NCBI RefSeq assembly: GCF_044324785.1
Contig: NZ_CP172127.1
Source of the DNA: Escherichia coli
GTDB lineage: Bacteria > Pseudomonadota > Gammaproteobacteria > Enterobacterales > Enterobacteriaceae
Reading direction: 5' to 3' (one strand)
DNA length: 64,000 nt
Shown here: piece by piece, positions 52,649 to 53,343 of the stretch
Layout: every line of letters starts with the position of its first letter
Numbering within the stretch: position 1 is the first letter of the stretch
Program-made: the position numbers and the translations under genes
The notes under the pieces: model-generated
Seen by the model: only the letters and a program-made list of their open reading frames with translations
Database searches by the model: none
Told to the model about the DNA's origin: nothing

Positions 52649-52724
52649 GTATGTCGTACCTGTTTTTGGAATTCTTTCCGCAATAGTTTCATGCAGACTA
52701 CCTGTAGTAAGGGAAGCTGCTTAG

Positions 52725-52771
52725 AACACTATATATAGGGGGTATGTTTGGGATTCACTGCAAGATAGTGT
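52725..52771 (-). promoter_or_regulatory. Two candidate NrdR boxes in the nrdA promoter/leader
   Basis: aacactatatataggg and cactgcaagatagtgt, centres about 31 bp apart, partial match to the NrdR palindrome. Confidence 0.5.
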
Positions 52772-52801
52772 GAAAATGGCCCTCTTGCAAGTGCATAACT
52801 T

Positions 52802-52810
52802 TGTGGATAA
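52802..52810 (-). promoter_or_regulatory. DnaA box upstream of nrdA
   Basis: Plus-strand tgtggataa = TTATCCACA on minus strand (perfect consensus); adjacent weaker box gtgcataac. Confidence 0.6.
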
Positions 52811-53343
52811 CTCAGGAAGGAAAAAGTGGCTTTCGCGCACCTTAGGTCAGACAAGGTGTCCGGGAAAGTCAATGGGAAGAGAAAAATTTGTTAAAAATAA
52901 CTGTTCGGCGATTTCTTGAACGGAAGAATAGGTTAGATAAATTGATATAGATGGTTTATTAATCTTTTGGCTAATGATTGCAAAAATTGATCTAAGCACG
53001 AATCATCACATAATCTGATGTATCAGTTCTGGTCAATATATAAGCGAATGTAAGCGATTGTTGATATCGAAATGGTTGTTTTCTCTTCGGTTATTGTTAA
53101 ATGCGAAGCCATTTTGTTAATTTACCTTATATTATAAGAAAATTATTCATTACTTTAATTCAGTTTAAATATAACTAATATCCCTTAAGGTGATTAACTT
53201 GAATTATGACGCATTGATATTATTCATCAAATAATAACAAAATAGCCATTGCACGGGGTTGAACAATTTACAAAAGAAAAATAACCCATATCGTATAATG
53301 CGATTAAATACGCCGTCTTATATAAAATGATGGTCAGATTAAT

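Follow-up and report, generated by a model that had tools for sequence, protein, structure and literature searches.

The 695-bp spacer at 52649-53343, which lies between nrdA on the minus strand and yfaL/ehaC on the plus strand of a non-K-12 Escherichia coli, is very probably best explained as a whole by a back-to-back pair of control regions, one on the nrdA side and one on the yfaL side. Both are already known: together they are the E. coli nrdAB promoter and the yfaL promoter island, each of which has been described previously. Since studies of E. coli K-12 have already described each of the main elements, the region carries little weight as a discovery. The positions, matrix ranks, spacings, composition, conservation and gene identities given below were established in this analysis of the whole stretch of 64,000 nucleotides (64 kb; the window), whereas protein binding by NrdR, DnaA, HusR and H-NS is taken from papers reporting K-12 data.

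The spacer and its flanking genes

The spacer was delimited from the sequence together with its list of open reading frames (ORFs), and is bounded by the following two genes.

50363..52648, minus strand: nrdA coding sequence, class Ia ribonucleotide reductase alpha subunit, 761 aa (ORF list, NCBIfam, RefSeq)
53344..57102, plus strand: yfaL/ehaC coding sequence, AIDA-I family autotransporter adhesin, 1252 aa (ORF list, NCBIfam, RefSeq)

The nrdA product scores 1644 bits against the NCBIfam equivalog NF006578 (cutoff 813) and the yfaL product 2752 bits against the equivalog NF007285 (cutoff 1459), and the RefSeq annotation of near-identical E. coli genomes agrees on both identities. An initial annotation, made from the sequence, had described a divergent nrdA-yfaL region at 52649-53343; its coordinates are exact, and the ORFs, RefSeq and NCBIfam confirm the genes that it named. 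A 1.4-kb stretch around the spacer is present in 5,425 of 5,426 complete E. coli genomes, where it is annotated with nrdA, ypaB and yfaL. It shows 96.6% identity to MG1655, and its best match is strain CFSAN018748 at 99.1%.

NrdR boxes upstream of nrdA

We searched the window with an NrdR weight matrix built from the four nrdHIEF and nrdDG boxes only (sequences from PMC12176259). Having been trained solely on those boxes, the matrix is independent of nrdAB. Some 64,000 window positions were scanned, with both strands scored at each. Three boxes precede nrdA.

52695..52710, minus strand: NrdR box 2, TTACTACAGGTAGTCT (nrdA sense), 11.6 bits, rank 2 in 64 kb
52726..52741, minus strand: NrdR box 1, CCCCTATATATAGTGT, 17.2 bits, rank 1 in 64 kb, identical to the K-12 box
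52758..52773, minus strand: NrdR box 0, TCACACTATCTTGCAG, the classical upstream box, 8.05 bits, rank 12, overlapping the −10 element and the start site

Boxes 1 and 2 sit 47-93 bp upstream of the nrdA ATG, in the promoter and leader region of a ribonucleotide reductase operon. Both are 16-bp, partially palindromic sequences that match the NrdR consensus and carry the critical bases C4 and G13 (criterion from preprint 10.64898/2026.05.11.724285). Measured from start to start, box 2 and box 1 are 31 bp apart and box 1 and box 0 are 32 bp apart, so that both pairs have the linker of 15-16 bp (31-32 bp start to start) of an NrdR operator. A strong box occupies the place of box 1 in all 80 loci scored (79 fetched and the window).

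The ranks obtained with the matrix agree with the published preference for boxes 1 and 2. In K-12, NrdR binds these two with a KD of about 100 nM compared with more than 6000 nM for boxes 0 and 1 (PMC12176259, 2025), and the authors of that study named boxes 1 and 2 the true NrdR site. The weakness of box 0 is due to a C that replaces A at position 6, a defect described in preprint 10.64898/2026.05.11.724285. The window differs from K-12 in one base of box 2, at position 1 (T here, G in K-12), leaving C4, A6, T11 and G13 intact; positions 1-2 of this box vary among E. coli strains, and the four E. coli sequences that we compared agree throughout positions 3-16.

The initial annotation had reported two NrdR-box-like palindromes about 31 bp apart and had proposed a scan with an NrdR matrix. 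The boxes and the spacing are real and the scan places boxes 1 and 2 first and second in 64 kb, but there are three boxes rather than two. Given spacings of 31 bp (boxes 1 and 2) and 32 bp (boxes 0 and 1), the reported pair fits either combination; if the classical boxes 0 and 1 were meant, then by the published K-12 KD values this is not the pair that NrdR binds. Judged from sequence, the high-affinity NrdR operator is formed by boxes 1 and 2 within the leader, and it is this pair, rather than the classical pair of boxes 0 and 1, that should be annotated as the functional operator.

With a transcription start near 52758, box 1 would extend from about +18 to +33 and box 2 from about +49 to +64, which puts NrdR on the early transcribed region. 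NrdR loaded with ATP and dATP would thus bind boxes 1 and 2 (about +18 to +64) and stop transcription when dNTPs are plentiful, presumably in the manner of a roadblock.

The nrdA promoter and its DnaA boxes

The promoter elements and the DnaA boxes of nrdA are as follows; type A loci are those with DnaA boxes upstream of the −35 element, as described further below.

52649..52758, minus strand: nrdA 5′ leader, about 110 nt, its upper end placed from the position of the −10 element and the published coverage of −10 and start by box 0
52762..52767, minus strand: nrdA −10 hexamer TATCTT, from the sequence, 17 bp from TTGCAA; TATCTTG is kept in all type A loci
52785..52790, minus strand: nrdA −35 hexamer TTGCAA, from the sequence; CACTTGCAA is conserved in type A loci
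52790..52798, minus strand: weaker DnaA box TTATGCACT, two mismatches to TTATCCACA, overlapping the −35 hexamer by one base
52802..52810, minus strand: perfect DnaA box TTATCCACA, the single perfect copy in 64 kb, ending 162 bp from the nrdA ATG

A sigma-70 promoter composed of TTGCAA, a 17-bp spacer and TATCTT would initiate the nrdA leader of about 110 nt. A simple promoter scan misses the −10 element because it matches at only 8 of 12 positions. According to preprint 10.64898/2026.05.11.724285, box 0 covers the −10 element and the nrdA transcription start. Mapped start sites incompatible with the boxes had been named as grounds for rejecting the initial annotation; the published −10 element and start fall inside box 0, and the two are compatible.

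The leader folds into no structure beyond that of shuffled sequence (z = −0.25), and on this value an attenuator in the E. coli nrdA leader was considered and rejected. A search of 52300-53700 against Rfam at a permissive threshold gave zero matches, hence no known riboswitch or sRNA, and a terminator scan of the spacer returned no terminator-like sites.

The perfect DnaA box on the minus strand and its weaker neighbour, both claimed by the initial annotation, were found at 52802-52810 and 52790-52798. The weaker box TTATGCACT departs from the consensus TTATNCACA at one position, and the two boxes form a direct repeat spaced 12 bp (repeat family D2). Given a start near 52758, their position is about −52 to −32. 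The regulation of nrdAB by DnaA has been reviewed in PMC8203912, which describes DnaA boxes immediately upstream of the −35 element. The proposed match to the known cell-cycle and dNTP-responsive control of nrdAB holds as well, the boxes being the published nrdAB sites (PMC8203912, PMC12176259, preprint 10.64898/2026.05.11.724285).

We considered whether an AT-rich spacer could have produced these motifs by chance, so that they would be devoid of regulatory meaning. Some of the counts are what chance would give: a perfect DnaA 9-mer is expected about 0.5 times per 64 kb on both strands, the window shows no enrichment of near-matches with at most one mismatch (7, with 11.9 expected), and 11 other places in it score at least as well as NrdR box 0. 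The 9-mer by itself proves nothing, because its near-matches are not enriched. However, the top two NrdR matrix matches of the window stand 31 bp apart in the nrdA leader, and the NrdR and DnaA motifs are positionally conserved over dozens of genera. In every one of the 27 type A loci (26 fetched from Enterobacterales and the window), in particular, a perfect DnaA box precedes NrdR box 1 by 69-79 bp, a positional conservation beyond chance. NrdR binding has moreover been measured directly (PMC12176259). Conservation and binding data have in effect already refuted chance as the explanation, and we regard it as exceedingly improbable.

The two DnaA boxes, lying upstream of the −35 element and touching it, would let DnaA tune nrdA transcription. 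In published work, low DnaA-ATP leads to activation of nrdAB and high DnaA-ATP to repression.

A conserved block upstream of the nrdA promoter

The initial annotation had described about 480 bp of AT-rich DNA between the boxes and yfaL. The DNA is indeed AT-rich, with a GC content of 0.313 at 52811-53343 against 0.519 for the whole window, but the length that remains after the perfect DnaA box is 533 bp. This remainder consists of two parts, one of about 115 bp that reaches to about 52923 and one of about 420 bp. Three features fall in or near the first part.

52813..52828, plus-strand reading: HusR (YnfL) box CAGGAAGGAAAAAGTG, exact match to PMC12844172 Table 1
52838..52853, strand not assigned: HusR (YnfL) box CAGACAAGGTGTCCGG, palindromic, exact match to PMC12844172 Table 1
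52847..52923, minus strand: ancestral nrd upstream block (CCGTTCAAGAAATC...T-rich...ATTGACTTTCCCGGACACCTTGT, nrdA sense), from conserved columns

HusR is a LysR-type regulator, and its two boxes were published in 2026 for the ypaB/nrdA spacer (PMC12844172). The T-rich block with its ATTGAC motif aligns across 79 Enterobacterales loci, whether yfaL is present or absent, and among E. coli strains the proximal part (52811 to about 52923) is nearly invariant, with at least 99% identity in 1896 records from the search of 5,426 complete genomes. Conserved as they are in genomes that lack yfaL, the first 115 bp or so of the AT-rich remainder are assigned by alignment to nrdA and not to yfaL. The conserved T-rich block is probably the upstream AT-rich activating, cell-cycle element of nrd.

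These observations raise the question of how far the nrd control region extends. One alternative to a pair of control regions is that the whole AT-rich stretch serves nrdA, as a Fis/IciA/AT-rich activating and cell-cycle region that yfaL merely adjoins. The conservation of the block out to about −275 in 79 loci is in keeping with this, as is a report of H-NS as a modulator of nrdAB (PMC12176259), and papers cited in PMC8203912 and elsewhere report, by their titles, that nrd regulation needs AT-rich DNA upstream as well as several sites there. Against it, conservation ends at about 52923, and the distal 420 bp or so have no counterpart in the 65 species in which ubiG precedes nrdA. In E. albertii, Pseudocitrobacter and a divergent E. 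coli, the distal part and the yfaL allele also vary together. We therefore consider it unlikely that the whole stretch belongs to nrdA and retain the reading of two control regions, in which that of nrd reaches no further than about 275 bp from the nrdA ATG and the remainder belongs to the yfaL island.

The ypaB reading frame overlying the promoter

RefSeq annotates a short ORF across the nrdA promoter.

52776..52919, plus strand: ypaB, annotated 47-aa ORF (RefSeq), lying over the −35 hexamer, both DnaA boxes and both HusR boxes

The statement of the initial annotation that the AT-rich DNA holds no ORF is correct beyond 53000, where none of at least 40 aa occurs, but fails at 52776-52919 on account of ypaB. 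The frame is not kept intact in relatives that keep the DNA: CTG replaces the initial ATG in a B2 strain, in E. albertii a stop at codon 18 leaves 17 aa, and the copy in a P1-like plasmid has 34 aa. Comparisons of the coding sequence gave synonymous to nonsynonymous differences of 0:5, 3:5, 6:17 and 11:30 with synonymous sites making up 21%, so that no synonymous excess and no purifying selection were seen. No NCBIfam family corresponds to ypaB. Its second codon specifies Ala in the window and Thr in K-12.

RNA from the ypaB strand has been measured and is HusR-dependent in stationary phase (PMC12844172), and induction of ypaB RNA by AZT, 9.6-fold, has been published. These two results could be read as signs that the spacer encodes a functional YpaB protein of 47 aa, or a divergent regulatory transcript, which would account for part of the conservation; so could the annotation of ypaB in most E. 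coli genomes, the retention of the 47-codon frame in Pseudocitrobacter and the presence of a similar ORF, upfO, in P1. The altered start, early stop and shortened copy described above speak against this reading, however, as do substitutions that lack synonymous bias and the lack of any protein family or Rfam match. The published CRISPRi effects at ypaB have been attributed to a block of the nrdA promoter. Furthermore the ORF sits exactly over the −35 hexamer and the DnaA and HusR boxes, and the DNA of ypaB is conserved because these promoter elements occupy the same bases. A functional product of ypaB is accordingly an even less likely explanation than an all-nrdA spacer. From the pattern of substitution, ypaB is probably not a conserved protein-coding gene, and we suggest that annotation treat it as an ORF over a promoter and not as a gene.

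The AT-rich island on the yfaL side

Beyond the conserved block, the spacer contains the following two features.

52926..53343, strand not assigned: yfaL-linked AT-rich island, GC 0.28, making up most of the published promoter island yfaL/ypaB
52987..53014, plus strand: sigma-70 promoter-like TTGATC-16-CATAAT (promoter scan), about 330 bp upstream of the yfaL ATG

The GC content falls to 0.293 at 52860-53343, and the lowest-GC stretch of 484 bp in the 64-kb window falls here. Promoter-like hexamer pairs are dense: there are nine in the 534 bp at 52859-53392, compared with an overall density of 0.91 per kb, four at the second-densest place and 4.0 ± 2.0 in shuffled sequences. This interval was converted from the K-12 numbering of the promoter island 2342143_534 yfaL/ypaB (Panyukov and Ozoline 2013), which was flagged as associated with a foreign gene (PMC3661553). 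The window thus reproduces the properties of such an island, namely a length of at least 300 bp, dense promoter-like sites and low GC. The TTGATC-16-CATAAT promoter is listed for yfaL in an RpoD genomic SELEX table, in which the yfaL/nrdA spacer is marked HNS (PMC3946193).

A horizontally acquired gene nearby is a further property of promoter islands. Among 80 species-representative genomes retrieved, the gene upstream of nrdA is ubiG in 65 and yfaL in four (E. coli, E. albertii, Pseudocitrobacter and one more Enterobacteriaceae genome), which marks yfaL as the acquired gene. The distal DNA of about 420 bp has no counterpart in genomes without yfaL and cannot be aligned to them, and where the yfaL allele differs, as it does in E. 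albertii, Pseudocitrobacter and a divergent E. coli, this DNA differs with it. It occurs in 5,422 of 5,426 complete E. coli genomes at 80-99% identity, none reaching 99% and the best being 98.8%, so that across these 5,426 genomes conservation is lower in the distal than in the proximal part. Some 420 bp of DNA with 28% GC would have arrived with the yfaL adhesin gene.

All the studies compiled for island 2342143_534 (the Grainger, Kahramanoglou and Oshima data sets) report it as bound by H-NS (PMC3661553). The high-affinity H-NS motif TCGATAAATT, allowing at most two mismatches, occurs 61 times where 58 are expected and so shows no enrichment, its two matches in the spacer are unremarkable, and H-NS binding therefore rests on composition and the published K-12 data. 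The island is full of promoter-like hexamers, and a coat of H-NS would keep yfaL largely silent in laboratory conditions. The description of the region in the initial annotation as a nucleoid-protein-silenced autotransporter promoter is supported by the published binding of H-NS in K-12 (PMC3661553, PMC3946193). We found no report of yfaL derepression in an hns mutant in the accessible literature, and for this reason we infer the silencing step in this strain.

The distal part holds nothing notable among small ORFs of at least 20 aa. Repeats in the spacer are short AT-rich pairs only, and the published 45-bp inverted repeat was not confidently identified among them. A conserved distal motif, TTTACATTCGCT...ATGA.CA at about 53033-53058, was considered as a CRP-like site or a promoter, and matches neither well.

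Two promoter layouts across Enterobacterales

Two unrelated nrdA promoter layouts were seen among 80 loci (79 fetched and the window), and their distribution crosses family boundaries. Type A, with DnaA boxes upstream of the −35 element, occurs in Escherichia, Pseudocitrobacter, Yersiniaceae, Hafniaceae, Budvicia and Dickeya. Type B is found in all of the 30 or more other Enterobacteriaceae sampled and in Erwiniaceae; here a DnaA box comes immediately after NrdR box 1 within the leader and is succeeded by a second, inverted DnaA box. In the type B leader the region of the DnaA boxes forms a hairpin, which is followed by a T-run.

Within Enterobacteriaceae, type A co-occurs with the yfaL insertion (three of the four yfaL-bearing genomes), and phages P1/P7 carry a mobile 130-bp copy of the type A promoter. 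We tentatively suggest, as a possibility that is the less probable one, that the nrdA control region is an evolutionary mosaic, in which an essential gene acquired a new promoter by horizontal replacement and yfaL possibly came with it. If true, two unrelated promoter layouts for an essential gene would make a neat case of regulatory replacement in Enterobacterales.

Comparison with known systems

Phages P1 and P7 carry a copy, 115-130 bp long, of window positions 52772-52901, which takes in the −35 hexamer, the two DnaA boxes together with those for HusR, and the greater part of ypaB. The identity of this nrdA-like promoter copy to the window is 95.4% in P7 and SJ46 and 82.6% in P1. It lies upstream of hot in the phage or plasmid and, by alignment, lacks the −10 hexamer, the NrdR boxes and the leader of the chromosomal locus. 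GenBank annotation (M95666, NC_005856) already labels the copy an 'nrdA-like promoter' and marks a 'dnaA box' in it.

On the yfaL side, the spacer shares with the H-NS-silenced acquired adhesin genes of E. coli an AT-rich upstream DNA, a patchily distributed gene and H-NS occupancy in the literature. Compared with the K-12 island 2342143_534 it is the same DNA with the same low GC, the window copy being about 95% identical. The nearest known system on the other side is the nrdAB promoter of K-12 at the same locus, to which the window is identical in the −35 and −10 hexamers, both DnaA boxes, NrdR boxes 0 and 1 and both HusR boxes, and likewise in the box spacings of 31 and 32 bp.

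Strain alleles of the nrdA-yfaL spacer

The nrd-side part of the spacer (the proximal segment) was found at 90-95% identity in approximately 990 records, and the B2-type allele, represented by strain M1/5 (locus L005), differs from the window in its nrdA leader and at ypaB. The leader carries a 13-bp deletion, GGAATTCTTTCCG (window 52677-52689), and the start of the small open reading frame ypaB is CTG in place of ATG. A further allele is found in the GTDB representative 'E. coli' SCPM-O-B-8794:

L007:1700-2230, upstream region of this strain

Here the nrd-proximal 280 bp are nearly identical to the window, the distal, yfaL-side spacer is closer to E. 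albertii than to the window, and the N-terminal passenger of YfaL is just 74% identical.

A conserved motif on the yfaL side

One motif recurs across yfaL alleles from three sources, E. coli, E. albertii and Pseudocitrobacter (upstream regions of L007, L008 and L013), in yfaL-side DNA that otherwise diverges between them:

window ~53033-53058, nrdA sense, TTTACATTCGCT.A.AT.ATGA.CA

This motif could be a regulator site or a promoter for yfaL. Apart from the yfaL-side spacer, the only 484-bp windows in the 64 kb with a GC fraction of 0.33 or less (minimum 0.31) lie at ~11100-12270, a stretch that ranks second for promoter-like density with 4 matches.

Copies of the nrdA promoter on phages and plasmids

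Searches with the full spacer gave 235 and 323 plasmid matches. A segment comprising the nrdA -35 element, DnaA box, HusR box and ypaB (window 52772-52901) is copied in the phages P1, P7 and SJ46 and in P1-like plasmids, where it lies immediately 5' of hot:

L003:1501-1615, copy in P1
L002:4001-4115, copy in a P1-like plasmid
L004:476-590, copy in a further locus

The P7 and SJ46 copies are 95.4% identical to the window over 130 bp and the P1 copy 82.6% over 115 bp. GenBank already labels the copy 'nrdA-like promoter' and marks a 'dnaA box' in it.

Two nrdA promoter layouts

Across 80 loci, namely the window (52649-52930) and 79 fetched Enterobacterales loci (series L007-L086, nrdA ATG at position 2501), the nrdA promoters fall into two unrelated layouts, whose distribution crosses family boundaries:

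Type A, 27 loci: perfect DnaA box 5' of the -35 element; Escherichia, Pseudocitrobacter, Yersinia, Serratia, Rahnella, Hafnia, Edwardsiella, Budvicia, Dickeya, Brenneria
Type B, 50 loci: DnaA box directly after NrdR box 1 and none upstream; Citrobacter, Klebsiella, Enterobacter, Kosakonia, Pantoea, Erwinia, Pectobacterium

The remaining three loci have the type B pair of NrdR boxes without a perfect DnaA box. Many type B loci also show an extra NrdR-like box of 12-14 bits near -381 (e.g. L017, L025 and L032), approximately 380 bp 5' of the nrdA ATG, distant from the main operator and near the end of ubiG.

A predicted hairpin in the type B leader

The type B leader has a regular order of elements, namely a C-run, NrdR box 1, the DnaA box, a loop, an inverted DnaA box, a G-run and a T-run, as in:

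L012:2404-2479, type B leader
L017:2407-2480, type B leader

A strong hairpin is predicted for these leaders (-18 to -32 kcal/mol, z = -2.1 to -3.6 relative to shuffled sequence), and a strict pattern for it matches in 24 loci. Unlike the E. coli nrdA leader, which is without any counterpart of this hairpin, the type B leader carries a structure that looks like a terminator or attenuator.
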